Shown here: piece after piece, positions 1-45,674 of the stretch
Layout: every line of letters starts with the position of its first letter
How positions within the stretch are numbered: position 1 is the stretch's first letter
Origin: an uncultured Acidimicrobiaceae bacterium
Lineage (GTDB): Bacteria > Actinomycetota > Acidimicrobiia > Acidimicrobiales > Bog-793
Length of the DNA: 64,000 bases
Direction of reading: 5' to 3'
Assembly: GCA_963801185.1 (NCBI GenBank)
Contig: CAWDDW010000001.1
Location: forward strand, 112,928-176,927
Translations under genes and position numbers: made by a program
The notes under the pieces: generated by a model
What the model saw: the letters and a program-made list of their open reading frames with translations, nothing else
What the model was told of the DNA's origin: nothing
The model's database searches: none

Positions 1-1407
1 CAGCCGGTGGGCCGTGCGATCGAGGGCAGCCTCGCTGCGGGCCGAGAGGACGAGCAGCTGCTCCGTCAACCCGGGCTCGGCTGTGGGAATGGGAGGGGCT
101 TCTTCCACGATGACGTGCGCGTTGGTGCCGCCGACACCGAGCGAGGAGATTCCTGCCCGACGCGGGCCGTCGGCCGTCCACGGCGTCCCTTCGTCCGTGA
201 TTGTGAAGGGGCTCTTCTGGAGCTCGAGCAGCGTGCTCGGCGCGGTGAAGTTCGCGAGCGGGGGAAGCCAGCCATGGCGGAGGGCCTGCACCACCTTGAT
301 GAGGCTCGCGACGCCGGCCGCCGTGTCGAGATGCCCGATGTTGGGCTTAGTCGACACCAAACGGCAGAATCCCGTCTCGGCGGTGTCGGCGCGGAAGGCC
401 TCGGTGAGGGCGGTGAACTCGACGGGGTCCCCGACGGCGGTCCCGGTGCCGTGGGCTTCGAGCAGCGTGATGCTGCGCGCGTCGACACCGGCGACAGCGA
501 GCGCTTCTCGCACGACGTCGATGTGGCCGTCGACGCTCGGGGCGAGGTAACCGACCTTGCGTGCACCGTCGTTGTTGACGGCGCTGCCCCGGAGCAAGGC
601 CAGAATCGGGTCCCCGTCCCGGACGGCGTCATCCAACCGCCGGAGGGCGACCACGCCGACCCCACTCGTGAGCACCGTGCCGGCGGAGTTGACGTCGAAG
701 GCGTGACACCGGCCATCCGGGGCGAGGATCTCGCCATCGTGGTAGACGTAGCCGACTCCGTGAGGAACTTCGATCGTCGCGCCACCGGCGAGGGCGAGAT
801 CGCACTCCAAGGCGAGCAGGCTCTGAGCGGCAAGGTGCACCGCCACGAGCGAGGTCGAACAGGCCGTCTGCACATTGACGCTCGGCCCGCGCAGGTCGAG
901 GCGGTACGACACTCCGGTGGTGAGGAAATCCTTGTCATTGGCAGTATGGCGAAGGAGGAACCAGCCAAGGTCCCGCACGAGCTCGCCTCTCGTGAGCAGG
1001 TTGTGCACGAGGTAGGTGTTCATGCCGCAGCCCGCGAACACGCCGATTGACCCCGAGAACCGCTCTGGCACGTGGCCGGCCGACTCGAGGGCCTCCCATG
1101 CACACTGGTAGAAGTGGCGATGCTGGGGATCCATGACGGCCGCGTCGCGCGGTCCGATCCCGAAGAACTCAGCGTCGAAGCACTCCACGTCGTCGAGGAC
1201 ACCGGCACGCCGGACGTACAGCGGGTCGCTCAACGACAGTGGATCCACGCCGCGTGCCTCTAGCTCACCGGTGTCCAGATCGACCAGGCAGTCCTCACCT
1301 CGGGAGACTCGTCGCCACAGGGAGTCCGGGTCGGGCGCGCCCGGGAACCGCCCCGCCATGCCGACAATGGCGATCTCTGATCCGGTCAGCTCGCCCGTTG
1401 TGCTCAT
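1..1407 (-). CDS. Type I polyketide synthase, N-terminal ketosynthase (KS) domain; partial, gene continues beyond the left window edge
   Basis: Own minus-strand translation from ATG 1407-1405 gives MSTTGELTGSEIAIVGMAGRFPGAPD... KS motifs: VQTACSTSLVAVHLA (active-site Cys), EAHGTGT and KPNIGHL (His). The frame stays open to base 1, so it is absent from the ORF track. Track ORFs 7..1050(+) and 66..968(-) are shadows of it. ATGA start/stop overlap (1404-1407) with the upstream NRPS gene. Confidence 0.9.
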   Translation of the reverse strand, partial: MSTTGELTGSEIAIVGMAGRFPGAPDPDSLWRRVSRGEDCLVDLDTGELEARGVDPLSLSDPLYVRRAGVLDDVECFDAEFFGIGPRDAAVMDPQHRHFYQCAWEALESAGHVPERFSGSIGVFAGCGMNTYLVHNLLTRGELVRDLGWFLLRHTANDKDFLTTGVSYRLDLRGPSVNVQTACSTSLVAVHLAAQSLLALECDLALAGGATIEVPHGVGYVYHDGEILAPDGRCHAFDVNSAGTVLTSGVGVVALRRLDDAVRDGDPILALLRGSAVNNDGARKVGYLAPSVDGHIDVVREALAVAGVDARSITLLEAHGTGTAVGDPVEFTALTEAFRADTAETGFCRLVSTKPNIGHLDTAAGVASLIKVVQALRHGWLPPLANFTAPSTLLELQKSPFTITDEGTPWTADGPRRAGISSLGVGGTNAHVIVEEAPPIPTAEPGLTEQLLVLSARSEAALDRTAHRL

Positions 1408-4400
1408 GCTGGATCACCCCGCCGGCTGGTCAGGGCGGCTCGCCGTCGCGCTCCTCGGTCCGCTGCGTCCGCCGAGCTGAGCTGGGCATTGCCGTTTGTG
1501 CTGGGTTCGCCGGCCGAGCCCAGATTCGCCCCCGGCGCGAGCCAGAACACGATCTCAGCCAGGTGGGCTCCGAGCGTGCGAGCGGTCGGGTAGCGGAAAA
1601 TGTCAGTGAGAGCCAGCGGAGCCGCGGTCTGCTCACAGAGCTCCCGGAAGACCTTGACGGCCAGGAGCGAGTGCCCGCCTATGTCGAAGAAGTTGTCGTC
1701 GCGTCCCACGGAGCGCTCGAGGACTTCGGACCATGCGGCTGCCACAATGTCTTCTGCCGCCTGAGAGCTAGCGGTCGCCGTGCCACGGCCGCCAGTGCCC
1801 GGAGAAACACTTGCGGCGGGTGCTGGGACGGCGGCGTTCGTGCGATCGAGGCGGAGTCTCGGCGAGAGGGCTGCCCGGTCGATCTTGCCGTTCGGCGTCA
1901 GCGGGAAAGCCTCCACCACGACGATGCGCGACGGAACAATGGCCTCGGGCAGTGCGGACCTAGCATGCTCCCTGAGGGCCTCTGCCGAGATCGCCTCGCC
2001 GTCGCGGGTGACGACGTAGCCCTCGAGGAGCGTCGAGGCACCCGTCCCGACGGTTCGCGCGACCGCGCGGACAACCGCGGGGTGAGTTTCGAGGACAGCC
2101 TCGATCTCGCCCAGCTCGACACGGTGGCCACGGAGCTTGATCTGGTTGTCGATCCGGCCGTGGAAGTGGACGAGCCCATCGTCGTCGACCCTCGCCAGGT
2201 CGCCTGTGGCGTAGCAACGACCAAGCCCTGGCGGGGTGACGAAGCGAGCAGCAGTGAGGTCATCGCGCCCGAGATAGCCGCGGCTCACACCGGCGCCGCC
2301 GATGTGGAGCTCGCCGAGCACGCCGACGGGACACTGCACGCCCTTGGCATCAAGGACGTGCACTTTGGTGTTCGCGACGGGTCGTCCGATCGGTACCGGG
2401 CCGTCGTGGTCGGCGGGTATCTCGTGAACGAGTGACCAGATCGTGGTCTCGGTCGGGCCGTACATGTTCGTAATCCGTCCGGGCATGACGCGTCGCAGCT
2501 CGGCTGCCAGCGTCGAGGGCAATTCTTCGCCACCAACGAAGAGGTGCCGCAGCGGCGACAGGGCCGCCCGGTCGGCGGCGTCGGCCAGCAGCAGGGTCGC
2601 TAGCGACGGGGTGCACTGAAGATGGGTGACCTTGTGACGGGTGATGAGCGACGAGATCGACTCTGGCTCGGACTCGGTCCGTGAACCCGAGGCGGCGAAA
2701 CGTTCGCGCGCCATGTTCCTCAGCTCCGCGATGCGCTCGAATCCTGCCACCGCCCGATCGTGATCGACGCCGAAGTCGACGAGGCAGGCGATCTCGTCCA
2801 CTCCCGCAGTGACCATCTGTACCACCAGCTCCATCGCGTCCTCGGGGGAGCCGAACAGCCCGGCGGTGCCCAGGTAGCGGTCGGCGGCCGCGTCGAGCAG
2901 CTGATCGAGCTCGCTCGGTGAGAGCGACCGGAACACCTCGTCGGCGTCTGCACCGCCACCTCGTAGCGTGGGGAACGAGGACGCCATGTCCTTCAGGAGG
3001 GACGTTGCCGATGCAAGGTACGTCTTGAACGGCTCCCGGGCAGCGCCGTGAGCCGTTTCGCGATCCGCGTCGAGGTAGGTGTGCACCATCAAGGTGACCC
3101 GGCCCTCGCCCGAGTGTCCGGCAGCCTGCCTAGCAGCCCGATAGGAGGCGATCTTGGCCGTGAGTTGCTCGATCGATTGCCCGAGGAGGTGGGTGAGGAG
3201 GTTGCAGCCCAATCGACCCGCCAATTCGAACGACTCGGCGCTGCCCACGGTGGTCAACCAGAGCGGCACCTGGTCCTGCACGGGCCGGGGAAGCGTCTGG
3301 ACGTCGACGTCGCCCTTCGGGCCGGCGAACGCAACATGCTCGCCGGCCCACAGCCGTCGCACGAGCTGAATGTTTTCGACAAGACGGCTCTTGGAGTCGG
3401 CGTACGCGTCCGGATTGAGGACGAAGTCATTCGGCTGCCACCCAGAGGCCATGGCCATTCCGACCCGGCCATTCGACAGGTTGTCGACGACGGACCAGTC
3501 CTCTGTGACGGTGATCGGCGAGTGAAGCGGTAATACGACGCTGCCGGCGCGGATCGCCACCCGCTCGGTGATGGCGGCGATAGCCGCCCCGGTGATCGCC
3601 GGGTTGGGGTAGATGCCGCCGAAAGCGTGGAAGTGGCGCTCCGGCGTCCAGATCGCTTCGAATCCATTGCGGTCGGCAAAGCGAGCCCCGTCCATCAGCA
3701 GCCGATAGCCGACGTCACCGTCGGCCTCCGCGCTGGCGAAGTAGAAGAGGCTGAACGTGGGCCTCGACCCGGCCACCGAGCGACCTGGTGCCTCCACGAC
3801 GCCTTGGCGGGAGTCGCCTCGTACGACGACCTGGAAACCCCGGGTCAACGTCCAGAGGAGCTCGAGGATCGAGATGTCAAACGAGAGGCTCGTGACTGCG
3901 AGCCAGACCCCGGGTGGGTCGTGGCCGATCACCTCGTCCATCGCCGCGAAGAAGTTGATCACGTTGCGATGCTCGACCATCACCCCCTTCGGCCGACCCG
4001 TCGACCCCGAGGTGTAGATGACATAGGCGAGGTCCTCCGCTGTGGCTGGTGCTGCCGCGTCGCGTGCCGGCAGGCCGACCGCGAGCGGTGGTAGCTGGTC
4101 GCGAGGATCGACGACGGGGACGCCCGGTGGGAGCCACGATGCCGGCTGCGTAGCGATCACGGCGGCAAGTCCGGCGTCCGCGGCCATGAGACGGAGGCGT
4201 TCGGTCGGATATGCAGGATCGAGCGGGACATATGCGGCACCGCGCGCCAGCACAGCCAGCACTGCAGGTACGAGATGCTCGTCGCGGCCGAGGGCGATTC
4301 CGACGAGATCTCCGCGCCGGACTCCACGCGCAGCGAGGAGCCGGGCGAGCTTCTCGGTGCGGTTGCGGAGGTCCCCGTAGGTGAGCGTGGTGCCGCCTGC

Positions 4401-4862
4401 GGTGACGGCTGGCGCGTTCGGAGTCGCCGCAGCTTGCCGTGCGAAGGCCATGGCGACCGTGTCGCGCTCGTCGAAGTCTCGAGACGTGTCGTTCACCTTC
4501 TCGAAGATGTCGGCATCTGGCGGTCCGATGAGCGGTACACGCCAGACGGATTCGCCAACGCCGGTGGCGACGGCCGCGAGCACACCTCTCAGCTGTGCTG
4601 CGGCACGCTCCAGCGCCGCTTCCGACATTGACCCGGTCGCGGCGCTGAGCACAATGCCACTGTCAGCCACCTCGAGATGCAACGGAGTACTCGGCTCGGG
4701 CGTGACAGCTCGGCATCCGGAGAGCCCGCGTTCGTCGTCGATGGCCACGGCGCCTCGGATGAAACGCCCGCGGAGCTCCGGGTCACGAGCCACCAGGTCG
4801 GCGAGCCAGGGCCCGTCACCCATAGCTGCCTCGAGGGCAGTTCTAGCTGAGCGCACGGCCAC
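1404..4862 (-). CDS. NRPS-type module: adenylation domain interrupted by a luciferase-like monooxygenase, then a peptidyl carrier domain (A-LLM-PCP)
   Basis: 1152-aa ORF. Adenylation cores: LTYGDL, LAYVIYTSGSTGRPKG, FDISILE, NMYGPTETT, GELHIGGAGVSRGY, YATGDL, GRIDNQIKLRGHRVELGEIE, NGKIDR. Carrier motif FFDIGGHSLLAV lies near the C-terminus. No complete condensation or thioesterase domain was recognised. Confidence 0.9.
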   Translation of the reverse strand: MAVRSARTALEAAMGDGPWLADLVARDPELRGRFIRGAVAIDDERGLSGCRAVTPEPSTPLHLEVADSGIVLSAATGSMSEAALERAAAQLRGVLAAVATGVGESVWRVPLIGPPDADIFEKVNDTSRDFDERDTVAMAFARQAAATPNAPAVTAGGTTLTYGDLRNRTEKLARLLAARGVRRGDLVGIALGRDEHLVPAVLAVLARGAAYVPLDPAYPTERLRLMAADAGLAAVIATQPASWLPPGVPVVDPRDQLPPLAVGLPARDAAAPATAEDLAYVIYTSGSTGRPKGVMVEHRNVINFFAAMDEVIGHDPPGVWLAVTSLSFDISILELLWTLTRGFQVVVRGDSRQGVVEAPGRSVAGSRPTFSLFYFASAEADGDVGYRLLMDGARFADRNGFEAIWTPERHFHAFGGIYPNPAITGAAIAAITERVAIRAGSVVLPLHSPITVTEDWSVVDNLSNGRVGMAMASGWQPNDFVLNPDAYADSKSRLVENIQLVRRLWAGEHVAFAGPKGDVDVQTLPRPVQDQVPLWLTTVGSAESFELAGRLGCNLLTHLLGQSIEQLTAKIASYRAARQAAGHSGEGRVTLMVHTYLDADRETAHGAAREPFKTYLASATSLLKDMASSFPTLRGGGADADEVFRSLSPSELDQLLDAAADRYLGTAGLFGSPEDAMELVVQMVTAGVDEIACLVDFGVDHDRAVAGFERIAELRNMARERFAASGSRTESEPESISSLITRHKVTHLQCTPSLATLLLADAADRAALSPLRHLFVGGEELPSTLAAELRRVMPGRITNMYGPTETTIWSLVHEIPADHDGPVPIGRPVANTKVHVLDAKGVQCPVGVLGELHIGGAGVSRGYLGRDDLTAARFVTPPGLGRCYATGDLARVDDDGLVHFHGRIDNQIKLRGHRVELGEIEAVLETHPAVVRAVARTVGTGASTLLEGYVVTRDGEAISAEALREHARSALPEAIVPSRIVVVEAFPLTPNGKIDRAALSPRLRLDRTNAAVPAPAASVSPGTGGRGTATASSQAAEDIVAAAWSEVLERSVGRDDNFFDIGGHSLLAVKVFRELCEQTAAPLALTDIFRYPTARTLGAHLAEIVFWLAPGANLGSAGEPSTNGNAQLSSADAADRGARRRAALTSRRGDPA
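2709..3758 (-). other. Embedded luciferase-like (FMN-type) monooxygenase domain inside the adenylation domain
   Basis: About residues 369-718 of the 1152-aa product (FSLFYFASAEADG...WTPERHFHAFGGIYPNP...LVDFGVDHDR) lie between cores FDISILE (A4) and NMYGPTETT (A5). Boundaries are approximate. Confidence 0.75.
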
Positions 4863-4870
4863 TTCGAAAT

Positions 4871-6161
4871 TTAGTACTCGGGATCTTCCGGCAGCTCCAC
4901 GATCGCGATCGGGCGCCGGACCAGGGGGGCCGTAGCAGCCACGACCGCTAGCACCGGGGCATCTGCGACCTCCAGCGGCACGACAAGCGAGCCCGTCAAC
5001 CGTGCAACCCAGACCGCGGCGGCGGCGGCGATCTCCACCAAAGAGTGAGACTCCTCGGTGACGACAACCTGTCGTCGTCCCAGCGCTCCCAAGCCGGACA
5101 CGCTCCCGACCTCGACTACTGGTACGTGTCGCAGCCGACGCATGACGGAGGCCTCCGCTCGCGCCATGCTCGGGTCCTGATCCTCGAGGGCGGCGAGGAA
5201 CCGATCGGGAGGAGGATCCAAGACGGGCGCCACCGGGCCGTCGAGTTGGGCGAAGACGTCGTCGGCCGGGACAGGTACGCCGTTGGCATCGCTGAGGCCC
5301 TCAAGGAGGAGATCACCATCGGCCATGGTGATGGTCAGGCCCCTCTCACTCAGCGCGATCGCGCCCACCGGCGCGGCACTGTCAGAAGGGAGGCTGCGAG
5401 CAGCGCCGACGACCCAGAACCGTTTGCCTGCCACGAGCCGGACCGAACCCATGGGATTACGAATCCGAGCACCGAGGTCGAGGGCGCGAACCGCCCGCGC
5501 CATCTCCCTGGCCGTTCGGCGTCGATCGACGATCGTCTCGCTGCGGGGCCGGTCGTACCGTCCCCGGTAAAAGCGGGGGCGGTCGGGCTGCCGCGTGGTC
5601 ACAACCTCACCGCGAACGACGGCCGTTACGACAGCAGGAAACGACTCGAGGGCCGCGGCGAAGCACTTGGTGTTCAGCGAGTAGGCCGTCTCGTCCGCGC
5701 TCAGCTCTACCTCGGCAGTGGCCACGATGTCACCGGCGTCCACCTCTTCAGTTAGGAGGTGCCAAGTGACCGCATGGGTGACGGCGCCCGACAACAGCGC
5801 CCAACTCGTGACGTTCCGTCCCGCGAGGTCAGGTAGAGGACCGTCATGGAAGTTCAGCGCGAGCCTCGAAGCGTCGGAGGCTCTCGTCGGGGACGACCCG
5901 GAAATTACCGACGCTGAAGAGCAGTTCGGCCTCGAAGTGGCCGATAGCTGCCGCGAGACCCGCGGCCGGTGAGCGAACAGCTATGCCCCGAGCGGCGGCC
6001 CACGACGCGGCGGCTGGGTGGTCGGATATGACCCCGACGACCTCCAGCCCGCCGCTCAGCGCCAGGTCGGCGCACTCGAGCACGAGCGCGCGGTCGCCGA
6101 CGAAGACTGTCCTCCGCTTGCGGGATCGAATCACTACGGTCCCGGACCGGTTGCTCATCAA
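4871..6161 (-). pseudogene. Formyltransferase-like protein with C-terminal extension; frame broken near 5847-5875 (pseudogene or 1-nt sequence error)
   Basis: ORF 5844..6161 encodes the N-terminal half (...LLFSVGNFRVVPDESLRRFEAR). The catalytic core ALNFHDGPLPDLAGRNVTSWALLSGAVTHAVTWHLLTEEVDAGDIV (N-x-H ... D pattern) continues in the frame of ORF 4871..5794. Skipping one base after ...FEAR restores LNFHDGPLP. Only 8 nt separate its stop from the NRPS start. Confidence 0.7.
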
Positions 6162-6410
6162 CTACACCCCCGCGAGCACAGACCCTCGCACGATCCGCGT
6201 ATCACGACGTAAGGCTATCCGCCCGGGCAACACGAGGTTTCTGGCACCGCACCGATAAGAGGCGATCAGTCGCGAGTTCGACAACGCTCCCGCTCGGCTG
6301 CCATTGACAACAGTTCGCTGGCGACGCCTCAGGCAGCGCACCTTCTCGAACACTCTCGCCCATACCCCACAGTGCGCATCGACCTGGCCGAGCTTCCTCG
6401 GCAGCGCCTC

Positions 6411-8306
6411 TTACGGCCCTTCGGGCCACAAGTCGCTCTCGATCGTTGACAGTGTCTGCCCCGCGAACACCGACCGGCACCAGACTTCGGCCGACCAGAG
6501 TCGGACGCGCAACGCGCCCTGAGCAGACTCCAGGACATCTGCAAACTCACGGGTCGGGAAACCAAACACATCCCTGAATACGCCGTCGGACAAAAATAGG
6601 GGGTTCGCGGCGTCCTCGATCCACGCGCCAGCATCGAACATCATGCCGTAGATCTTCGGTCGGTGGGCGATCTTCCAAGGCAGCAGACCTCGAGCGACGT
6701 CGCGCAGGATGCCCTTGCTCCAAGGGCTCACCCTGAACTCGAGAGGCAGGTTCAGAGCGAGTTCGACGACACGAGGATCGAGAAACGGCACTCGTGCCTC
6801 GACGGAGACTTGCATCATATTCTTGTCCATGCGGCTCAACAGGTGCGAAAGGGTGAAGTCAAGGTCGCGCAACAGCTTCGTCTCGAGCGCAGCCCTCGGT
6901 CCAGCGTGGTGCATGTATGCGGACTCGATTTCCGCCTTGATTGCGTCGTCACCGGCTATCCCATCACCGGTTGTCTCGTCACCCGTAGGGCTGTTCGCAC
7001 CCGATCCGTTGCGGCCTCTCGGAATACGTACGGCGGCTAGCTTTTTCAGCCGCCTGTCTACCGCCCGGAGAGTAGCTAGTGGGTGTCCGAGCATGACCGG
7101 TTCCAGGGTGCGGATCGCCCGCTGGCTCGGCGACAAGAATGTGGCTAAGGGGACAGTTCGCCCGCCGATGTACCCGCCGAACAACTCGTCCGCCCCCTCC
7201 CCCGTCAGAAGGACCTTGATACCACGGCCACGGGCACGCTCGGCCATTTGCGATATGGTCACGGAGCTTGCAGTTGCCAACGGAGCGCCGAAGTGAAGAG
7301 TTGCTGCCACGAAGCCGCTCCTCCAGCCCGATTTCGTGACTTCGAACTGGTCAAGTTCGATTCCCAACGCGTCGGCTACGCGCTGCGCAGCTGGGCCTTC
7401 GTCGAAAGCCGGGTCGCCCTTGTACCTGGCCCCGAAGGCGACGAGATCACTCTTGACCTCCACGGCCAACACGGTGATGAGACTCGAGTCCACTCCGCCG
7501 GAGAGCAAGGTCCCCATCGGAACATCGCCGAGTAGAGCATCGTGGACGGCGGAGCGAAGAGTGCCCTCCAGCTCGGAGACGAGGGTCGAGCGGGTACTCG
7601 CTTGCAACTGCCTTTGGCGTTCCGCGTCTACATGGCTCGTGGCGGAGTCCCAGCGGTGGCTTGTGACCCGTGAAGAGTCGAGTGCGATCTCCAACCAGGT
7701 ACCCGGTGAGAGCCTGCGAATGCCGCTTAGAAGCGTGTCGTCTCCTGGATAGCACGACCAATCGAGGATGCTTCTCCAACCGTCCGTCCGCGCTGATGGT
7801 TTGATGCCGGCCGCCAACAGCGCATCGGGTTCGCTTGCGAACCAGATGGCATCATCCGCGCAGGCTATATACAGAGGCTTGATACCGAAACGGTCACGGG
7901 CCAGCAGCAGGCGCCCAGCCGTGAGGTCGAGCGCGGCGAACGCGAACTGACCGTTGAGACGCGGAAGCACACTTGGACCCCAATGGGCGAGCGCATGCAA
8001 GAGTGTGTCGGTGTCTCCGTCGGACACGAAGGACTCGCTGTCAAATTCACTGCGGATCGCCTTGTGGTTGAAGATCTCTCCATTGAATGAGAGCCACCAG
8101 GCTCCGCTGGGGTGACGCATCGGCTGGCGCGCTCGCTCGCTTACGTCGACGATCGCAAGGCGCGTATGGACAAGCCCGACGTTGTCGAGTATCTCCACGC
8201 CCGACCCGTCAGGACCACGATGCGTGAGGGCGTCACGCATCGCCGCGAGTCGCTCAGGCGAGGGGCTCTGGCCGCGAGGAACCACGCAGCCGCCGATACC
8301 GCACAT
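6411..8306 (-). CDS. Asparagine synthase (glutamine-hydrolysing) family amidotransferase
   Basis: 631-aa ORF. N-terminal MCGIGG supplies the Cys2 Ntn glutaminase nucleophile. PP-loop LLSGGVDSSLI is in the synthetase half. Confidence 0.9.
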   Translation of the reverse strand: MCGIGGCVVPRGQSPSPERLAAMRDALTHRGPDGSGVEILDNVGLVHTRLAIVDVSERARQPMRHPSGAWWLSFNGEIFNHKAIRSEFDSESFVSDGDTDTLLHALAHWGPSVLPRLNGQFAFAALDLTAGRLLLARDRFGIKPLYIACADDAIWFASEPDALLAAGIKPSARTDGWRSILDWSCYPGDDTLLSGIRRLSPGTWLEIALDSSRVTSHRWDSATSHVDAERQRQLQASTRSTLVSELEGTLRSAVHDALLGDVPMGTLLSGGVDSSLITVLAVEVKSDLVAFGARYKGDPAFDEGPAAQRVADALGIELDQFEVTKSGWRSGFVAATLHFGAPLATASSVTISQMAERARGRGIKVLLTGEGADELFGGYIGGRTVPLATFLSPSQRAIRTLEPVMLGHPLATLRAVDRRLKKLAAVRIPRGRNGSGANSPTGDETTGDGIAGDDAIKAEIESAYMHHAGPRAALETKLLRDLDFTLSHLLSRMDKNMMQVSVEARVPFLDPRVVELALNLPLEFRVSPWSKGILRDVARGLLPWKIAHRPKIYGMMFDAGAWIEDAANPLFLSDGVFRDVFGFPTREFADVLESAQGALRVRLWSAEVWCRSVFAGQTLSTIESDLWPEGP

Positions 8307-8398
8307 GGGTCGAGGATAGTGGAACCGTCACCCAGCCTGAGACAGGGTCACAACCCGCTCTCGGCCTATAAGCCCGGGCTGGCGGACGACTCCAAACC

Positions 8399-10784: not shown

Positions 10785-10802
10785 GGGACCGGAGCGGCTC
10801 GG

Positions 10803-11048
10803 ATGTCTGATAGAGATGCGATCCTGCAGCTTCTCTCTCAGGAGACCGAGCTCGACCCCGCGGCTTTCGGGGCGGAGTGGGCGCTCATAGATCTCGGCAT
10901 CTCATCATTCGCCGTGATGAAGCTCCTTGTGGCGCTCGAAACGCGCTTTGACATTGAGTTCTCCGACGAGCAGATGGAAGAGATCGTGAGTTCGCCGGTC
11001 TCGGAGCTGCCGACGGTCGTCGAGCGAGCGCTCGCCGCCAAGCCCTGA
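10803..11048 (+). CDS. Stand-alone acyl carrier protein (81 aa)
   Basis: Small acidic helical ORF with the carrier-protein attachment region LIDLGISSFAVMKLLVALE. It sits 18 nt after the PPTase and 3 nt before the ligase. Confidence 0.7.
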   Translation: MSDRDAILQLLSQETELDPAAFGAEWALIDLGISSFAVMKLLVALETRFDIEFSDEQMEEIVSSPVSELPTVVERALAAKP

Positions 11049-11051
11049 GGC

Positions 11052-12569: not shown

Positions 12570-13209
12570 CCGACGTCGTCAGGGAGTTAAGCCGCCGCTG
12601 TGAGAGCATCCTCGTCAGCGCTTCGGCGTGAGCCCGGAGAGCCTGGACATCACACCGACGAGCCGGCCGGCCCAAATGGGAGCGAAGGCACCGGAAATGG
12701 GCTCGACCAGCGAGTTTGTAGCTGTTCGGGCGCATGGTGCTGTCGGTCGCGACGAGACCAGGCACCCTCTCGGCGGCTCGCTCTGGGGGTCCGCGCCTCG
12801 ACAGGATCGGGATGATACGTTCAGACCGATGTCGCCGCTCGACAGCCGCGATCCTTCCTGCCAAGCGTGGTCGACGACGCTCTGCCCGCATCCCGATGAG
12901 CCCGGCGGGTGCACCTGTCAAAGCTGCCTTGATGCGCCGATCCCGCAGCCCGCGGAGAGCGTCCGCTACGAGGAGAGCTGGCGTCCGCCCAGGTCGCGCG
13001 TCTGGCGCTTGCTCAAACCCCGATCTGATGCCTTTGCCAAGCAGATCGACGCATACCTCGATCTCTTAGCAGCGGAGTCTGCCCCGTTCAGCGGGCACCG
13101 CAGTCCCGAGGAGGCTGCGGAGCGACGTAGGAGCTGCGAGCGGGCCGGCGCTCGGCAGGTGCACAGAGTGAGCTGACGGCGGTCCCTCGCTCCGGGTGCC
13201 CCGGTCGCG

Positions 13210-14988
13210 TCATCCGAGCAGCTCATCGACACACCGCTGAGCGTCGAGGCATACGCGCATCCTGCTCTTCGGCGAGGGAAGGTAATGCGTGAAGTAGCGC
13301 ACGCCCTCGGTCAAGGCCCCGAGTATCCAGAGCCGTGGCTGGACCTGCCCACTGTGGTCGATCGGATGGAAGTCCTCGGAGAGCGCCACACTGCCGACCG
13401 GAGTCTCGCCGTACTTGAACTGCTGGAGCCGACCCTGCCGGTAGAGCTTCGTCAAGAGGGTCGACGAGGAGCGATGCAAAGTCGGATCTTCGAGATACCC
13501 CTGGATGAGCAGGTCGACCTGAGATGAGTAGGGGGTGTCGAGCTCCCTCGAGCGGATGGTCCGTCTTGCATGGGAAGTGGTCAGTCTCGGTCCTGGGCCG
13601 AAGGGGACTCTCACGACTCCAGCATCCATGAGCGCGAGCAGCTGCTGAGAGCGGACAGCGGGGGGTCCAGCCACCAGACGGCTCACTTTGCTCCGTATGT
13701 TGGAGTGGAAGTCGAGGTAGGACTCGAGCGAAAGCCCGCCGAACTCAATGACCGAGCGCATCGCGTCGCGTTGGAAGCGGAGAACCTCGTAAGCAGCCTT
13801 CACCGCACTGGAGGGTCCCTTGAGTGCCTCTTCCAGATCGGCTTCGATCATGGCGTACACACGGTCCTCGTAGTCCTTTGAGGAGACGAAACCCTCCTCG
13901 GGAGCGAAGAACTGACGGTTCGCGTCAAAGGAGCCGTAGCGTGCCGCGTACGGGGCGACGGCCGTCTCGAAGTCAGCGCCGATGGATGACTGCTCGAGGC
14001 GGGCGCGTACCTCCTTGGCAGCCTCAGGCCCAGCTACCAAAGAGGCGGAATGGATGTAGTACCGGGCCTGCATCTCGGCGAGAATGAGAGGTAGGAGCAT
14101 CGTTCTTACATCGACTTGGCCGGCGCCAGTTCGAATCGCTTTGACCGCCTCGGGGGTGCAGATGACTGGCGCGTATTCATCAGTCTCGTCAAGGGCTCCG
14201 ACGGCTTTGGCGCAGTAAGGAAAGCCGCTCCGGGAGAACAGATAAATGAGCGGCTCACGACCGCTCGCGTGATACCGAAGCCGATCGTTGCGCTCGGCAA
14301 ATGATCCGCCGTTGCCGAGCGTGAGCGCTGTGATCACATCGGTTGCCACGAGGCCCATGCCGACGACTCCGACGGAGGCCGTCGACGGGACACGTTCGAG
14401 GTAATTGGTAACCGGGTAGGGCCTCACGAGGTGTTCAGGATGATCGAGGTTCTCTGTGTGACCAGTTGTCAGCACGACGTGGTCCACGGCAATGACCTCG
14501 CCGTTGGCGAGCAACACGCGCTCGCTCCCGTCCGGTTGCCTCTCGATGTCGACCGCGAGGGCTCGGTGCTCGATGACCTCGAGGGACCACGGCGCCTCTT
14601 CCAAGAGAGTCTGGTAGAACCATTGGAGATAGGCGCCCATGACGCGCCTGGGCAGATAATCGTGCGGCGAGATCTCCCGTCCGGACGGCCCGACTCTGCA
14701 GTGGTCACCATTCCAGCGATAGCCAACCCGCCTTGCCCACTCATACAGGCCGATTCCGTAACGCGGCGGTGTTCCCTCGTAGCTCCAGGGGTAAAGCGAC
14801 AGCTGGCCGCACGGGGTGTTCAGCAGCAAGTAGTCCGGCTGATCCAACACGTACACACCTGGGCCGGCCGGACCAACCTCTATTACGTGGACGCGGGTGG
14901 CGTCGGGTCGAGTGCGCGCGGCATCGACAAGGCGCTCCAGCACGCACAAACCCCATGATCCGAGACCGACAAGAGCTACCTCTGTCAC
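13210..14988 (-). CDS. Large FAD/NAD(P)-binding domain protein (about 590 aa)
   Basis: Track ORF 13210..15135. The dinucleotide-binding stretch VALVGLGSWGLCVLERL follows directly after the internal GTG at 14988, which I take as the likelier start. A second Rossmann-like stretch is SVGVVGMGLVATDVI. The family call rests on fold pattern only. Confidence 0.6.
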   Translation of the reverse strand: MTEVALVGLGSWGLCVLERLVDAARTRPDATRVHVIEVGPAGPGVYVLDQPDYLLLNTPCGQLSLYPWSYEGTPPRYGIGLYEWARRVGYRWNGDHCRVGPSGREISPHDYLPRRVMGAYLQWFYQTLLEEAPWSLEVIEHRALAVDIERQPDGSERVLLANGEVIAVDHVVLTTGHTENLDHPEHLVRPYPVTNYLERVPSTASVGVVGMGLVATDVITALTLGNGGSFAERNDRLRYHASGREPLIYLFSRSGFPYCAKAVGALDETDEYAPVICTPEAVKAIRTGAGQVDVRTMLLPLILAEMQARYYIHSASLVAGPEAAKEVRARLEQSSIGADFETAVAPYAARYGSFDANRQFFAPEEGFVSSKDYEDRVYAMIEADLEEALKGPSSAVKAAYEVLRFQRDAMRSVIEFGGLSLESYLDFHSNIRSKVSRLVAGPPAVRSQQLLALMDAGVVRVPFGPGPRLTTSHARRTIRSRELDTPYSSQVDLLIQGYLEDPTLHRSSSTLLTKLYRQGRLQQFKYGETPVGSVALSEDFHPIDHSGQVQPRLWILGALTEGVRYFTHYLPSPKSRMRVCLDAQRCVDELLG

Positions 14989-15188
14989 GGCGCCCAACTG
15001 TCGGATCGAATAGTAGCTGCCCCCAGCCCCACCCCTACAAGCTACCGCGGCTGAGCCAACCCGTCGCACGCTGCTGGTTTGGCCTCCCTCGAGCGTCGAT
15101 TCCGAACAGGCGGCTCGGGGTTCCGGCCCCATCACGCCGGGCCGCGCTCGATTGAGACGGTAGTCGTAGCTCTCTATGCTGGTCTCGG

Positions 15189-15237
15189 GTCATCGACTTC
15201 GAGCAGCGGAGGTGTGTTATCCCAGTCGTCATCGACT
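15189..15237. repeat. 10-nt direct repeat GTCATCGACT (15189-15198 and 15228-15237) in the divergent intergenic region between the FAD protein gene and metA-like gene
   Basis: Read directly from the sequence. The two exact copies are 39 nt apart start-to-start and lie 70-120 nt upstream of GTG 15309. Confidence 0.5.
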
Positions 15238-15308
15238 CGCCGGATTCCGCGCCTTCCTCTGGGAGCGGGTCCCCGCGGAGCGCTCGTGGCCGCAGTACCG
15301 ATACCCCG

Positions 15309-16292
15309 GTGCTCGAGATCGCGCTAGTGAACAACATGCCGGATGGGGCTTTTGCTGAAACGGAGCGACAGTTCACGCGCTTGCTCGAGGACGCGTCCGA
15401 CGACCTCGAGTTGCGTGTGGGCCTCTACAGCCTGCCGGGGCTCCCGCGAAGCGAGGATACGGCTGGTTACATCTCGTCTCGCTACTACCCGCTCGAGCGA
15501 CTGTTTGGAATGCAGGCCGATGCCGTGATCGTGACGGGCACCGAGCCGCTCGCAGAGCACCTCACAGCCGAGCCGTACTGGGAGGCATTGACCGGTTTGA
15601 TCAACTGGGCGGCGGAATCCACCGTCTCTGCCGTCCTCTCGTGCTTGGCAGCCCATGCCGCCGTTCTGCTCTTCGACGGGATCGAGCGCGAGCCACTTGC
15701 CGAGAAGTGCTCCGGCGTCTTCTCTCACGAAGTGGTCACGTCGCACACGCTCGTCGAGGGGATGGCGGGCCCGATCTTCGTGCCGCACTCGCGGCTTAAC
15801 GACGTGCCCTACCGCTCGCTAAGTGAGCACGGTTATACGAGCTTCCTCAGTTCACACGAGCTCGACTGGACCGTGCTTGCACGAGAGCGCGGCAACTGTC
15901 TCTTCATGTTCGTCCAGGGCCACCCCGAGTACTCGACCTCGAGCCTATTGCGGGAGTACCGGCGCGATCTGCATCGGTTCATCCGAGGAGAACGTGACCA
16001 TTCTCCGCCCGTGCCGAGCAACTACCTCGATGAGGAAGGCGAGCGGTTGCTGCGGGAGTTCGCCGCGGCAACACGGACACAACCGGGGTCGGCCGACGTG
16101 ATGGAAAGGTTTCCTTTCGATCACGTCAGGCAGCACGTGGTAAATACCTGGCGGGCACCGGGCAAGCGATTGTACGCGAACTGGATCAAAGAAATCCTGC
16201 GTCGCAAGCATCACAGGAAAACAGGTCGCGTCAGTGCCGCGGGCGAGCAGCCGGTGAGCGAAGAACAAGGAACGAGGTCTGCTGGTGCGTGA
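15309..16292 (+). CDS. metA: Homoserine O-acyltransferase (MetA/HTS family), short N-terminus
   Basis: LEIALVNNMPDGAFAETERQFTRLL resembles the MetA ILNLMP...TE.QF.RLL region. Active-site Cys lies in VLSCLAAHAAV. The His/Glu motif is VQGHPEYS. GTG start with no obvious SD. Confidence 0.8.
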   Translation: MLEIALVNNMPDGAFAETERQFTRLLEDASDDLELRVGLYSLPGLPRSEDTAGYISSRYYPLERLFGMQADAVIVTGTEPLAEHLTAEPYWEALTGLINWAAESTVSAVLSCLAAHAAVLLFDGIEREPLAEKCSGVFSHEVVTSHTLVEGMAGPIFVPHSRLNDVPYRSLSEHGYTSFLSSHELDWTVLARERGNCLFMFVQGHPEYSTSSLLREYRRDLHRFIRGERDHSPPVPSNYLDEEGERLLREFAAATRTQPGSADVMERFPFDHVRQHVVNTWRAPGKRLYANWIKEILRRKHHRKTGRVSAAGEQPVSEEQGTRSAGA

Positions 16293-17580
16293 CGAGACGA
16301 TCGCCATCCACGGTGGCTACACACCGGACTCGACGAACGCCGTGGCCGTACCCATCTACCAGACCGTTGCCCATGAATTCGAAGACGCCGACCATGCTGC
16401 TGCGGTGTTCGACATGGACATCCCGGGCTTTCACTACAACAGGCTCAACAATCCGACGAACCAAGTCCTCGAGTCCCGCCTTGCTGCGCTCGAACGAGGC
16501 GTCGGGGCTCTGACCTTGAGTTCCGGAACGGCGGCTGTCCTCTACTCGGTCCAGAACATCGCCGAGATCGGGGACAACATCGTCTCGACTCCGCAGCTGT
16601 ACGGGACCACCTACACGATGTTCGTGCACATCTTGCCGAGCCAGGGACTCGAAGTCCGGTTGGCGGCGGACGACTCACCGGCCGCACTCGAGCCGCTCAT
16701 CGACACGCGCACCAAAGCGATCTTCTGCGAGAGCATCGGCAATCCTGCCGGCAACGTCGTGGACATTGAGGCTGTTGCCGCCCTCGCCCACAGCCACGGG
16801 ATCCCGCTCGTCGTCGACAACACGATCGCCACACCGATGATGCTCAAGCCGATCGAGCACGGTGCTGACATCGTCGTGCACTCCCTGACGAAGTTCATTG
16901 CGGGCCACGGTACGACGCTCGCCGGAGCCATCGTCGACAGCGGCAAGTTCCCCTGGGCGGAGCACCCGGACCGGTTCCCGATGTTCTCCCGGCCAGAGCC
17001 GTCCTTTCACGGAGTGGTGTACCCGGAGCGCTTCGGCGAGGCCGCCTATATCGTTCGCTGCAGGACGGTGGGCCTTCGGAACGCAGGGGCGACGCTGTCG
17101 CCCTTCAGCGCCTTTCTCGTGCTGCAGGGACTCGAGACCATGTCGGTGCGACTCGACCGCCACGAGGCCAACGCGCGGGCAGTTGCGGCGTACCTCGCCG
17201 CCGATCGGCGTGTCGCGTGGGTGGACTTTGCCGGCTTTGCCGAGCATCCCCATCACGAGCTAGCCCAGCGATACCTCAAAGGGCGTTGCTCCTCGCTCTT
17301 CACCTTCGGCGTGGTCGGCGGCTACGAGGCAGGGCTGAGGTTCTTCAACGCCGTGAAACTCTTCAAGCGCCTCGTGAACCTCGGCGATGCAAAGTCGCTC
17401 GTGAGCCATCCCGCCTCGACCACCCATAGACAGCTCACTCCCGACGACTTGCGGGTCGTCGGTGTTACACCGGACATGATCCGTCTGTCGGTGGGGATCG
17501 AGCATATCGACGACCTGATCGCAGACATCGACCAGGCGCTGGGCATCGCCTGCGCCGGCGATCCATCGCCGGAGACATGA
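16285..17580 (+). CDS. metY: O-acetyl/O-succinyl-homoserine sulfhydrylase family PLP enzyme (gamma-replacement; MetY-like)
   Basis: 431 aa. N-terminus IAIHGGYTPDSTNAVAVPIYQT. PLP-lysine motif HSLTKFIAGHG. 8-nt overlap with the metA-like gene. Confidence 0.85.
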   Translation: MRDETIAIHGGYTPDSTNAVAVPIYQTVAHEFEDADHAAAVFDMDIPGFHYNRLNNPTNQVLESRLAALERGVGALTLSSGTAAVLYSVQNIAEIGDNIVSTPQLYGTTYTMFVHILPSQGLEVRLAADDSPAALEPLIDTRTKAIFCESIGNPAGNVVDIEAVAALAHSHGIPLVVDNTIATPMMLKPIEHGADIVVHSLTKFIAGHGTTLAGAIVDSGKFPWAEHPDRFPMFSRPEPSFHGVVYPERFGEAAYIVRCRTVGLRNAGATLSPFSAFLVLQGLETMSVRLDRHEANARAVAAYLAADRRVAWVDFAGFAEHPHHELAQRYLKGRCSSLFTFGVVGGYEAGLRFFNAVKLFKRLVNLGDAKSLVSHPASTTHRQLTPDDLRVVGVTPDMIRLSVGIEHIDDLIADIDQALGIACAGDPSPET

Positions 17581-17659
17581 GCAGCGGAAAACCCGGACTT
17601 GCCGCAATTCGAAGCGGTACCATTTTCCGTGATCGGGTGAATGCCCAGTTGGAGGAGAT

Positions 17660-18073
17660 TTGGTGGATCGAGCGAGCCAGTGCGATGGCAACTACGGCCG
17701 CGGGCTATCGGTAGGTGTCGACATGATCTCTGTGTCGGAGGTGTCGGACGCGATCCGAGAGTTCGGCGATCTTTATGTCAACCGTGTGTTCACAAGCCAC
17801 GAGATCGACTGCTCGACCGGAGACGAGTTGGCGACGGCACGTCACTTCGCGGCTTGTTTTGCCGCGAAGGAGGCGACCATCAAGGTCCTCGGTGCGGACG
17901 GAGAGGTGCCCGGCTGGGGTTCGATAGAGGTGAAGCGCGAGGCGGGGGGACGTACGTCCCTTCGCTTGACCGGACTGGCCGCCGAGCTCGCTGAGCGCGC
18001 TCGACTCAAGACGTTCGCCGTGTCTATGACGCACCGGGGCGACCTGGCTGCAGCGGTGGTGATCGCAAGGTGA
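17660..18073 (+). CDS. acpS: Holo-[acyl-carrier-protein] synthase (AcpS-type PPTase)
   Basis: 137 aa. Motifs: LSVGVDMISVSEV, FAAKEATIKVLG, SMTHRGDLAAAVVIA. GGAGGAG lies 5-7 nt upstream of the TTG 17660 / GTG 17663 start. Confidence 0.8.
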   Translation: MVDRASQCDGNYGRGLSVGVDMISVSEVSDAIREFGDLYVNRVFTSHEIDCSTGDELATARHFAACFAAKEATIKVLGADGEVPGWGSIEVKREAGGRTSLRLTGLAAELAERARLKTFAVSMTHRGDLAAAVVIAR

Positions 18074-18363
18074 CCTCACTGGACGAGCAATCGATCAGCC
18101 AGGAGGTCCGCCGCGTTCTGGACCAGTACGGGCGGCTCTCGGTGCCGATGGCCGAACTCGCTGACTCCGACGAGCTTTACCGCGTGGGCATGACCTCTCA
18201 CGCGGCCGTCAGCGTCATGCTGGCGCTCGAGGCCGCGTTCAAGGTGCAGTTCCCCGATGCCATGCTGCGGCAGAACACCTTTTCGTCGGTGGACGCAATC
18301 GCGGCCGCTGTCGGCCTGCTGATCAAGTTCCAAACAGGCGATGGGCTTGACCCTCTTCCCTGA
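18070..18363 (+). CDS. Dedicated carrier protein (97 aa)
   Basis: Attachment region LYRVGMTSHAAVSVMLALE. GTGA overlap with acpS. Its 3' end overlaps the ligase start. Confidence 0.7.
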   Translation: MTSLDEQSISQEVRRVLDQYGRLSVPMAELADSDELYRVGMTSHAAVSVMLALEAAFKVQFPDAMLRQNTFSSVDAIAAAVGLLIKFQTGDGLDPLP

Positions 18364-19255
18364 GGACAACTTCAGGACGCAGCTCGTAGCTGCTGGTCTA
18401 CTCCTTCCGACGGACGTCGACGGGATATATCTCCGCTCTGGGGCGTTCGAGAGCGTTGTGCGAGCAATAGACGATCTCGTGAGTGCAGCCGGCGCCGACG
18501 AGGACGCACAGGTCTTGTATTTCCCGGTTGTGATGCCACGGATCGTCCTCGAGCAGTCCGAGTATGTGCGGGCGTTCCCGGATCTGGTGGGCTCGGTCAA
18601 CACATTCGAGGGTGACGACGCGCTGCACGCAGAGATCCTGCACCGCCTCGAGCGCGGAGAGAACTGGGCCGAGCTGTTCGAGCCCTCCGACGTTGTGCTC
18701 TGCTCCGCAGGTTGCCACCTGCTGTACCCGCTTTGTCGTGGGCGCTTGATCGAGCACGGTCGTCGCTTCGAGATCTTTGGTCAGTGCTTCCGTCACGAAC
18801 CGAGCCTCGACCCGGCGCGGATGCAGGCCTTCCGCATACACGAGTTCGTCTACGTCGGAGATGCCGAGGACGCCGTGGCGCATCGCGATACGTGGCTCGA
18901 GCGCGCGGCTCATCTGCTGGACGGCCTCGGGCTGACGGTCGAGGCCGTTCTCACGACCGACTCCTTCTTCGGCCGGGCGGGCAAGCTCCTCTCTGCCCGC
19001 CAACGAGCCGAGTCCCTCAAGCACGAGATCGTGACGTCCGTGCGGCCAGGAGAAGGTCCGATCTCCGTTGTCTCGTGCAACTGTCATCTCGACCACTTCG
19101 GCCGTGGATTCGGTATCGAGACGGCAGACGGAGCCGTCGCACATAGCGCGTGCGTGGGATTCGGGACCGAACGCATCACGCTCGCGCTGCTGGCGGCTCA
19201 CGGGCTCGACCGTGATCGCTGGCCCTCTTCCATCACATCCCAGCTGTGGCCGTGA
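18341..19255 (+). CDS. Amino acid:[carrier-protein] ligase, truncated class II aminoacyl-tRNA-synthetase homologue
   Basis: 304 aa, catalytic core only. Class II motif 2-like GQCFRHEPSLDPARMQAFRIHEFVYVG and motif 3-like GFGTERITLALLAAHG. Cys-rich segments CSAGCH and SCNCH. A carrier-protein gene lies immediately upstream, as in the described aa:CP ligases. Confidence 0.7.
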   Translation: MGLTLFPEDNFRTQLVAAGLLLPTDVDGIYLRSGAFESVVRAIDDLVSAAGADEDAQVLYFPVVMPRIVLEQSEYVRAFPDLVGSVNTFEGDDALHAEILHRLERGENWAELFEPSDVVLCSAGCHLLYPLCRGRLIEHGRRFEIFGQCFRHEPSLDPARMQAFRIHEFVYVGDAEDAVAHRDTWLERAAHLLDGLGLTVEAVLTTDSFFGRAGKLLSARQRAESLKHEIVTSVRPGEGPISVVSCNCHLDHFGRGFGIETADGAVAHSACVGFGTERITLALLAAHGLDRDRWPSSITSQLWP

Positions 19256-19970: not shown

Positions 19971-20031
19971 GAGCGAGAGTTTCGCCGCGTCGCCGCCCGG
20001 GAGCCTGGTGATCCACCCGCCGACGGCTTGG

Positions 20032-24000: not shown

Positions 24001-24007
24001 TCTGATC

Positions 24008-25776: not shown

Positions 25777-25842
25777 CGGGGCCAAGGTAACAACCGGGGG
25801 CGTTCCGTCGCGTATCGGGGCGTACGCGAAAGAAGGGTGATA

Positions 25843-28885: not shown

Positions 28886-29012
28886 GCGAGTGGCCGCGGC
28901 AAGGGTCGCGCAACGTCGCGACTGATGAGCCGCTTTGTCCCGGTGGTAGCGTCTAAGTCCGCCGAGGAGCGACGTGCTCGCTCTGTTGAATCCCTGAAGG
29001 AGGTCCCTGCCC

Positions 29013-34497: not shown

Positions 34498-34582
34498 CGA
34501 CCCCCTCGTCCGTTCAGGGACTTGCGGCGCAAGCTGGCAACACGGGCGCCTCTCATGGCCGGACATTGATGCCGAGCGCGCC

Positions 34583-38449: not shown

Positions 38450-38462
38450 ACTGGTCGGTTCG

Positions 38463-40160: not shown

Positions 40161-40162
40161 GC

Positions 40163-45673: not shown

Positions 45674-45674
45674 G

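Follow-up and report, generated by a model that had tools for sequence, protein, structure and literature searches.

Aminoacylation of carrier proteins by amino acid:[carrier protein] ligases was shown in 2010, and a review published in 2022 still gave the cellular role of these enzymes as unknown (PMC9437257). Other described systems related to parts of the locus reported here include the formyltransferase-adenylation-peptidyl carrier protein loading modules OzmO and CongA, F-A(Gly)-PCP, and the PP-loop cyclodehydratase OzmP/CongE (PMC4504003). Also relevant are CmaE and SyrC, which shuttle aminoacyl groups between carriers of different proteins (PMC8748450), and the L-aspartate N-hydroxylase of Streptomyces sp. 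V2 (PDB 8CP2), for which aspartate-binding residues (Arg13, Arg276, Arg416, Arg577 and Asn413) and a sulfate-site cluster (Arg266, Arg409 and Arg412) have been reported (PMC10404684). In the present study, we examined a 64,000-nt stretch of an uncultured Acidimicrobiaceae genome (contig CAWDDW010000001.1 of GCA_963801185.1, positions 112,928 to 176,927; hereafter the window), the first 19.3 kb of which hold a composite carrier-protein locus.

An earlier note, made from the sequence alone, had divided this locus into three units. Unit i comprises a formyltransferase-like gene, an A domain with an embedded luciferase-like monooxygenase (LLM), a PCP, and the ketosynthase (KS) of a polyketide synthase (PKS). 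Unit ii consists of a fused double hydrolase and an AsnB-type amidotransferase, divergent from an Sfp-type phosphopantetheinyl transferase (PPTase), an 81-aa acyl carrier protein (ACP81) and a stand-alone adenylating ligase (A505). Unit iii consists of a MetA-like/MetY-like pair, an AcpS-type PPTase, a 97-aa carrier (CP97) and a ligase resembling an aminoacyl-tRNA synthetase (aaRS), divergent from an FAD protein. Every gene named there was recovered at or close to its proposed place and its family assignment holds in Pfam and NCBIfam, with PDB support added for unit iii; the exception is a separate formyltransferase gene, which proved to be a domain of a larger unit i protein. The proposed tally of three carriers, three families of adenylating enzyme and two PPTase types is likewise correct, a third, Sfp-type PPTase lying outside the window.

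Our analysis indicates that units ii and iii (8399-19255) are one recurrent, undescribed system, and that unit i is a separate, conserved and uncharacterised small nonribosomal peptide synthetase (NRPS)-PKS cassette that does not belong to it. As the earlier note had surmised of the whole combination, we found no characterised pathway that matches it, nor a described pathway for unit i or for units ii and iii taken separately; in kind, we place the finding among carrier-protein-dependent systems of amino-acid tailoring and transfer. Each of the three units has its own PPTase, and they are better regarded as self-sufficient than as loaders feeding a single assembly line. To the reading of the region as a mosaic of such modules, with the roles proposed below, we give an even chance of being right.

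Recurrent linkage of units ii and iii

Genes and families were called from an open reading frame (ORF) listing and from Pfam and NCBIfam profile scans. Window proteins were scored by tblastn against 165 related loci, with 80 loci fetched via the ligase from a genome collection, 80 via the double hydrolase from metagenomes, and a few more by exact look-up; individual loci are referred to by handles such as L096. The FAD, MetA-like and MetY-like genes are an obligate trio, complete in 21 of the 25 loci that have any member, with the other four cut by a contig end. At least four gene orders of the trio relative to the ligase or hydrolase were observed (for example in L016, L054, L079, L097, L143 and L144). 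The hydrolases nearest to that of the window (40-55% identity) belong to L096, L097, L098, L099, L101 and L102; each is divergent from an ACP81 orthologue, in the layout of the window, and also from an A505 orthologue wherever the sequence reaches (L099 is too short). ACP81 orthologues with the same layout (L096-L102) are 37-51% identical, and L101 has an Sfp homologue in the corresponding place. The trio and a CP97-type carrier adjoin the hydrolase/ACP81/A505 set in L096, L097, L098 and L144, four of the five informative loci with an A505 orthologue, and units ii and iii are therefore not chance neighbours. In sister species (L014-L019, L104-L121) the order is MetA, MetY, AcpS, ligase, tandem hydrolase and carrier. 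As the trio recurs beside the tandem hydrolase and small carriers together with either the ligase or an A505 orthologue, units ii and iii constitute one system.

The earlier note had put all three units forward as a single undescribed system, to be judged by whether they stay linked in related genomes. For units ii and iii this proposal stands, but unit i drops out: it is unlinked from the rest across the 165 loci, in which the KS was found in none and AsnB in one, and unit i is therefore separable from units ii and iii.

Among the 80 loci fetched via the ligase, 75 contain a CP97-type carrier, 59 an AcpS and 39 a tandem hydrolase within 10 kb. Across 101 ligase loci, an acyl-CoA-dehydrogenase-like (ACAD-like) gene was found in 64, DUF1839 in 62 and the trio in 17, the trio never together with ACAD or DUF1839 (0 overlap), which suggests that these are alternative tailoring sets. 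The majority ligase cassette (L020-L092; for example L095 7868-11883) comprises AcpS, carrier, ACAD-like gene, ligase and DUF1839, is hosted by Acidimicrobiia, Rhodococcus and Gordonia, and is frequently accompanied, at a distance of 1-4 kb, by a tandem hydrolase of ~570 aa. The loader appears swappable, since L097 and L144 combine a CP97-type carrier with an A505-type loader and have no ligase.

We consider it highly improbable that the locus is a chance juxtaposition of housekeeping MetA/MetY and AsnB with unrelated carrier systems. The MetY-like protein and AsnB do pass the TIGR01326 and TIGR01536 cutoffs (Table 1), and the housekeeping genes nadA, uvrC, gap and pgk lie directly to the right. 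Against this, the trio is linked obligately beside carriers, hydrolase and loaders, in varied orders and many species; where the earlier note had allowed that metA and metY could be plain housekeeping neighbours, they stand with the FAD N-hydroxylase homologue in 21 of 21 uncut loci. In the window, metA-like, metY-like, AcpS, CP97 and ligase genes overlap or abut as one plus-strand operon, and the MetA-like protein scores under the equivalog cutoff and has a divergent N-terminus. An Rfam scan of 1-24 kb gave no match at E<=1, and a riboswitch ahead of the metA-like gene, for S-adenosylmethionine or otherwise, was also rejected.

Table 1 Genes and domains of the carrier-protein locus, with window coordinates
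Feature	Position	Strand	Basis and remarks
KS, 5' part of a single-module type I PKS	1-1407	-	Pfam KS domains; runs off the left edge
A domain interrupted by TIGR04020 luciferase-like monooxygenase, then PCP	1404-4862	-	Pfam, NCBIfam
Formyltransferase pieces	4871-5794 and 5844-6161	-	Pfam
F-A(LLM/MOx insert)-PCP loading module, reconstructed	1404-6158	-	Single 1583-aa ORF in other assemblies
AsnB-type glutamine amidotransferase	6411-8306	-	TIGR01536 359.7 bits (cutoff 267)
Tandem alpha/beta-hydrolase, 551 aa	8399-10054	-	Pfam; NCBIfam hydr2_PEP-like + hydr1_PEP-like, below cutoff
Sfp-type PPTase of ACP81/A505 module	10053-10784	+	PF01648; HetI-like in NCBIfam; longest ORF from 9969
Acyl carrier protein ACP81, 81 aa	10803-11048	+	PF00550
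Stand-alone adenylating enzyme A505, 505 aa	11052-12569	+	Pfam, NCBIfam; 3 nt downstream of ACP81
Class B flavin N-hydroxylase homologue	13210-15135	-	PF13454; divergent from metA-like operon
MetA-like homoserine O-acyltransferase (HTS family)	15309-16292	+	PF04204; NF003776 340.4 bits (cutoff 358)
MetY-like pyridoxal phosphate (PLP) gamma-replacement enzyme (O-acylhomoserine sulfhydrylase family)	16285-17580	+	PF01053; TIGR01326 579.5 bits (cutoff 495)
AcpS-type PPTase, 136 aa	17663-18073	+	PF01648 51.8 bits; stop overlaps CP97 start
Carrier CP97, 97 aa, amino acid:carrier-protein ligase type	18070-18363	+	NF005480 91.4 bits (cutoff 72)
Amino acid:[carrier protein] ligase, 304 aa	18341-19255	+	NF005479 377.7 bits (cutoff 357); PDB Bll0957 E=2e-59

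Homologues suggest that the tandem hydrolase starts at Met31 (~9964). An AlphaFold2 model of the protein (pLDDT 90.2, pTM 0.91), considered with alignments, indicates two unequal halves. The N half is predicted to be catalytically inactive because a nearly invariant Arg141 occupies the nucleophile elbow and no His follows the last strand. The C half, with a G-L-C421-S-G elbow and an invariant H526 after the last strand, is predicted to have a Cys-His catalytic site. Foldseek searches with the model returned only single-domain lipases, esterases and thioesterases and found no two-domain relative. A second tandem-hydrolase paralogue is present in L096 (6242-8053; 603 aa, 39% identity to the window hydrolase); there too, Arg takes the place of the nucleophile in the N half, and a simple pattern search of the C half (G-x-(S/C/R)-x-G) gave no Cys motif.

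The specificity code of A505, DGGSAGRIAK, consists of five small residues plus Arg among others, and recurs unchanged in three orthologues and nearly so in a fourth (L096, L098 and L102 among those). We know of no code that matches it, and our guess from the code would be a large, possibly acidic substrate. The 640-nt gap between A505 and the FAD gene (12570-13210) holds a 159-aa ORF (12697-13176) that is called by some gene callers only and has no family match. An ATP-grasp gene lies between A505 and the trio genes in L096 and L097, with a second hydrolase also there in L096; no remnant of either was detected in the window gap.

The only PDB relative of the FAD protein is 8CP2 (E=4e-51, 35% identity over 541 positions). 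N106 aligns with the catalytic Asn62 of 8CP2, and Arg409, Arg412 and Arg416 are retained, the aligned stretch ending before Arg577. Four of the residues reported for 8CP2 differ, namely Arg13 (W61), Arg266 (K310), Arg276 (E320) and Asn413 (D457). No nitrosuccinate lyase of the CreD/FzmL type was present among the annotated genes of 1-24 kb, L096 or L097. With the aspartate pocket altered and the lyase partner absent, an aspartate-nitrosuccinate pathway was rejected, and the FAD protein is read as a putative N-oxygenase acting on another, less acidic amino acid.

The MetA-like protein retains the Cys and H-x-E motifs. Its frame is open upstream of the first ATG/GTG/TTG (15192-15309) and encodes V-I-P-V-V-I-D, resembling the canonical MetA N-terminus; GGAGG at 15208-15212 precedes an ATC codon at 15219. 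The true start is probably this non-ATG codon, ATC 15219; the NCBI product for the gene is 366 aa from ATC 15192. The metY-like gene overlaps the metA-like gene by 8 nt and is the most conserved of the set (66-88% identity); its product retains the SxTK PLP lysine and has a best equivalog score of 631 against a cutoff of 790.

The aaRS-like ligase is a class II (atypical SerRS) catalytic core without the tRNA-binding domain, and its gene start is overlapped by the CP97 gene. It matches the Bll0957 structures (PDB 3MEY, 4H2W) at E about 1e-60, and methanogen-type SerRS at E=3.5e-12 only, over the C-terminal core. Residues C125, E153 and C271 are invariant in 14 homologues and align with the Cys/Glu/Cys positions of Bll0957, the ligands of its active-site zinc. 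The Gly/Ala selector of Bll0957, Ala281, corresponds to Gly273 in the window ligase. A total of 1798 ligase homologues were found. Literature searches for later functional work on these ligases and on TIGR04020/TIGR0310x yielded nothing relevant. An alternative ORF at 17641-17994, overlapping the AcpS gene, has no Pfam match.

A separable formyltransferase-adenylation-PKS cassette

The window is 99.95% identical to four independent assemblies (a 153.9 kb JGI contig, GCA_052143955.1, a second JGI contig and a Logan contig), in all four of which the single bases inserted in the window at 4867, 4877, 5864 and 19985 are missing. The first three insertions fall within the formyltransferase/A-domain region and split a fused gene into the separate formyltransferase ORFs seen in the window. 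In the other assemblies the gene encodes one 1583-aa protein with the order Formyl_trans_N (match at 68-176), AMP-binding, LLM, AMP-binding, PCP. In the 1.365-Mb source contig of the window it is broken into pieces of 1139 and 307 aa, as found by cluster look-up, and assembly error is the most likely cause of the split. The insertion at 19985 probably accounts for a nadA ORF of 423 aa in the window, compared with 374 aa in the other assemblies. Six substitutions were also identified (3247, 7471, 8748, 15747, 20133 and 21506; five G>A and one C>T), and the C-(G>A)-C-G context around four of the G>A changes looks like systematic long-read or methylation-related basecalling error. Probable single-base errors break genes in the source assembly, and ORF-based reading of this contig calls for care.

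The LLM insert is of the MupA/Atu3671 type and follows position 238 of 384 in the AMP-binding profile. Anchored on the A4/A5 motifs, and aligned with a GrsA reference sequence, the A domain gives the specificity code DILQFGMIWK, close to the glycine code DILQLGLIWK. The F domain retains N-x-H and the Asp motif, and the PCP has GGHSL. The KS gene is ATGA-coupled to the F-A-PCP gene and, as the earlier note had recognised, is incomplete at the left edge of the window. The full PKS, on a same-species JGI contig (L180), is 2081 aa with the architecture KS-AT-KR-DH-ACP-TE, and is directly followed, just beyond the window edge, by a 226-aa Sfp-type PPTase (4PPT_N + ACPS); 10 kb of this left flank past the F-A-PCP stop was obtained via cluster member P0361. 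With the PKS trailed by its own Sfp PPTase, each carrier in the region has its own loader and PPTase.

The F-A(LLM)-PCP architecture is common to ~18 protein clusters. We inspected its homologues at P0242 (56% identity), L178 (Roseovarius sp. LXJ103) and L179, three loci that all pair the loading module with a PKS of ~2140 aa, and an Sfp PPTase adjoins the pair in two of the three. Genes of units ii and iii, and AsnB, are absent from all three. AsnB itself, which begins MCGI and has Cys2, is not conserved elsewhere with any of the three units. It is the only PP-loop-containing neighbour of the loading module and is a full AsnB with a GATase domain; a reading in which it acts as an OzmP/CongE-like cyclodehydratase in oxazole formation was rejected, given its absence from three of three homologous cassettes.

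These data also bear on whether the three carriers could feed a single hybrid peptide-polyketide product, the hydrolase shuttling aminoacyl groups from ACP81 or CP97 to the NRPS-PKS, and AsnB amidating. Shuttling of the CmaE/SyrC type between carriers is a known mechanism (PMC8748450), and the genes are contiguous, with hydrolase, AsnB, F-A-PCP and PKS co-directional and separated by short gaps. We nonetheless judge such an integrated pathway to be improbable: no related locus pairs unit i with units ii and iii, the three homologous cassettes occur without the latter, every carrier has its own PPTase, and no condensation domain to take a second amino acid was found by Pfam in the window genes or the off-window PKS.

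Read as a cassette of its own, unit i would load and N-formylate glycine on the F-A-PCP module, and the embedded monooxygenase might oxidise it. The single PKS module would extend the N-formyl-glycine starter, and a short ketide would be released or transferred by the TE, with the dedicated Sfp PPTase serving the cassette. To the left of unit i, on the other strand of the same-species contig, are a GHMP kinase, a nucleotidyltransferase, an epimerase/dehydratase and a GT4 glycosyltransferase. The surroundings of L178 and L179 are polysaccharide loci, where WecG, GT2, GT4, Wzx-type Polysacc_synt, Wzz, Bac_transf, Poly_export and Wzy_C occur. From Acidimicrobiales to Roseovarius, the cassette of F-A(Gly, MOx)-PCP, PKS and PPTase is conserved, and the glycan genes near it point to an unrecognised small acyl substituent or anchor.

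Proposed roles of units ii and iii and their glycan context

For units ii and iii, we infer a scheme in which the trio would make a homoserine-derived non-proteinogenic amino acid. The MetA-like enzyme would install an O-acyl group, and the MetY-like enzyme would swap in a nucleophile that the N-hydroxylase produces or that is linked to this enzyme, most likely an N-oxygenated one. A505 would charge ACP81 and the aaRS-like ligase would charge CP97, each carrier with its own PPTase. Cys421 of the hydrolase would then take the aminoacyl group from the carrier thioester and pass it on to a second carrier or a final acceptor, most likely a glycan precursor; Dlt-type systems hand aminoacyl groups to envelope polymers. 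By analogy, the chemistry of the trio resembles that of D-cycloserine and rhizobitoxine biosynthesis, where a PLP replacement enzyme joins an O-acyl-(homo)serine to an O or N nucleophile.

A glycan acceptor is suggested by the hydrolase family. A Pfam census was made of neighbours within 4 kb of tandem hydrolases at 21 loci with no detectable ligase, carrier or trio (bare hydrolases). The 98 neighbours included 12 of the GT1 families, seven of the GT2 families, four GDP-mannose dehydratases, three epimerases, three Polysacc_synt_3, two Polysacc_synt (possibly overlapping) and one Bac_transf. Glycosyltransferase (GT) enrichment of this kind was not seen around the trio, where the heterogeneous flanks of 15 loci gave GT1 families for only four of 89 neighbours, in a census whose gene picker missed some low-GC3 genes. 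Database gene calls place GT, Wzy or WecG neighbours in L093, L094, L096 and L097. The link to glycans is therefore strong for the hydrolase family and weak for the trio subtype.

The GT-poor trio flanks would suit another account of units ii and iii, as one system making a free N-O or N-hydroxy amino-acid antimetabolite or metallophore that the hydrolase, as a thioesterase or cyclase, would release and that would have no tie to glycans. Thioesterases are indeed among the Foldseek matches of the hydrolase, and the combination of N-hydroxylase, O-acyltransferase and PLP enzyme, joined in 17 of 24 trio loci by an ATP-grasp, follows the logic of the Dcs pathway. On the other hand, the hydrolase family otherwise sits in glycan loci, sugar-nucleotide and GT genes adjoin the region in the genome of the window itself, and no exporter or resistance gene is found within 8.4-19.3 kb. 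A thioesterase role would also leave two carriers and the dead N-terminal half of the hydrolase unexplained. A free product of this kind is possible but unlikely.

Several points weigh against our preferred reading of separate modules with a transfer role for units ii and iii. The host is an uncultured metagenome-assembled genome, and the protein assignments in the locus rest on sequence and model. The hydrolase, AsnB, F-A-PCP and PKS genes follow one another in one direction with gaps of 92 and ~250 nt, and co-transcription of unit i with part of units ii and iii is possible. The MetY-like protein, passing a subfamily cutoff for O-acetylhomoserine sulfhydrylases, could serve simple homocysteine production. 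The ATP-grasp partner seen in most trio loci is missing from the window, the trio flanks are poor in GT1 families, and no membrane transferase or flippase was found within 8.4-19.3 kb. In its most specific form, with an N-O-linked or N-hydroxylated homoserine-derived amino acid on ACP81 or CP97 put onto a cell-surface glycan by the Cys-type tandem hydrolase, the scheme is a long shot.

Were that form true, aaRS-like amino acid:carrier-protein ligases would gain their first biological role, and Actinomycetota would have a new system that decorates glycans with aminoacyl groups, parallel in mechanism to an uncharacterised PEP-CTERM-associated cassette of Proteobacteria. If the trio does perform gamma-replacement with an N-oxygenated nucleophile, N-O amino acids would be made by a new route. 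The locus and its ~165 relatives make the purpose of these ligases testable through concrete hypotheses, namely that there are two exclusive tailoring flavours, that a tandem Cys-type hydrolase accompanies about half of the ligase-fetched loci, and that an ANL enzyme can replace the ligase.

To the right of the ligase are genes for an MDMPI_N protein, nadA, uvrC, rapZ, a CofD-like protein, gap, pgk, tpi and secG; as housekeeping genes begin here, the end of the locus is placed at ~19.3 kb. A promoter and terminator scan of 5.8-19.6 kb gave counts no higher than in shuffles. The block at 23906-29000 (L001 14874-20544) comprises uvrC, a methyltransferase, rapZ, the CofD-like gene (yvcK), gap, pgk, tpi and secG. 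The usual actinobacterial order has whiA between the CofD-like gene and gap, and it is not found there in this block. Further right, at 32215-35659, where G+C is lower (0.62-0.64), an OLD-family nuclease (AAA_21 + TOPRIM, 760 aa) adjoins an Mrr-type restriction endonuclease, and the pair has the look of a minor defence island. A GT2 glycosyltransferase, a PMT_2-type membrane glycosyltransferase and GH26 occur together at 36851-41257, and a PLP enzyme of the Orn/Lys/Arg decarboxylase family at 45417-46823; these genes may share an envelope-glycan theme with the locus.

Comparison with described systems

The window ligase shares with Bll0957, Bll6282 and Atu2573 (Mocibob et al. 2010, 2013; PDB 3MEY, 4H2W) a truncated atypical-SerRS core and an adjoining dedicated carrier. 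It differs in the partners of its clade, which are the N-hydroxylase/MetA/MetY trio, the majority type of ligase locus being accompanied by ACAD/DUF1839 (64 of 101). The other small carrier, ACP81, recalls DltC, which is likewise charged by a stand-alone ANL enzyme (DltA) for decoration of a cell-envelope polymer, and DltA models are among the top full-length NCBIfam matches of A505. In contrast to the Dlt system, neither DltB nor DltD is present, the specificity code of A505 is different, and the partner proteins appear cytosolic.

Among NCBIfam models, the exosortase A (PEP-CTERM) set of hydr1_PEP (TIGR03100), hydr2_PEP (TIGR03101), ligase_PEP_1 (TIGR03098) and the XrtA-system amidotransferase (TIGR03108) ranks first or close to first for the hydrolase halves, A505 and AsnB. 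By the family descriptions, this set is an exopolysaccharide-locus cassette without known function. All four scores are far under the curated cutoffs, at 113.2 (cutoff 202.75) and 74.3 (168.45) for the hydrolase halves, 185.7 (592.35) for A505 and 255.7 (816.9) for AsnB, and membership in the PEP-CTERM cassette was rejected; no exosortase was found among the annotated genes of the 64 kb and its flanks. Compared with that set, the two hydrolases are fused in the window, the host is an actinomycete, and the aaRS-like ligase and the N-hydroxylase/MetA/MetY trio are added.

The hydrolase may also be likened, by description, to CmaE and SyrC, given the two carriers and the placement of C421 in a G-x-C-x-G elbow; both of these are alpha/beta-fold enzymes with an active-site Cys. 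They differ from the window protein in acting within NRPS pathways, and the latter is a tandem with a predicted dead N half.

With the L-aspartate N-hydroxylases of the CreE/FzmM family, the window FAD protein shares the fold, 35% identity, the catalytic Asn and three of the Arg residues, and it differs from them in its obligate MetA-like and MetY-like partners. The trio as a whole compares with D-cycloserine (DcsA/E/D/G) and rhizobitoxine (RtxA) biosynthesis in combining an O-acyltransferase, a PLP replacement enzyme, an N-hydroxylating enzyme and, in most sister loci, an ATP-grasp. Unlike the D-cycloserine pathway, it has an HTS-family enzyme and MetY in place of DcsE and DcsD, and a flavin in place of a haem hydroxylase; carrier proteins are involved, and the window has no ATP-grasp.

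Unit i resembles OzmO and CongA in its F domain, glycine-type A code, and PCP directly upstream of a KS, and MtaG/MelG-type A domains in the monooxygenase embedded in its A domain, these interrupted A domains being built like that of the window. It unites both features in one module. Compared with OzmO and CongA, its PKS is a single module with a TE, the OzmP/CongE-type cyclodehydratase is not conserved with the loading module-PKS pair in P0242, L178 and L179, and the homologous cassettes lie in glycan loci in two of these three cases.

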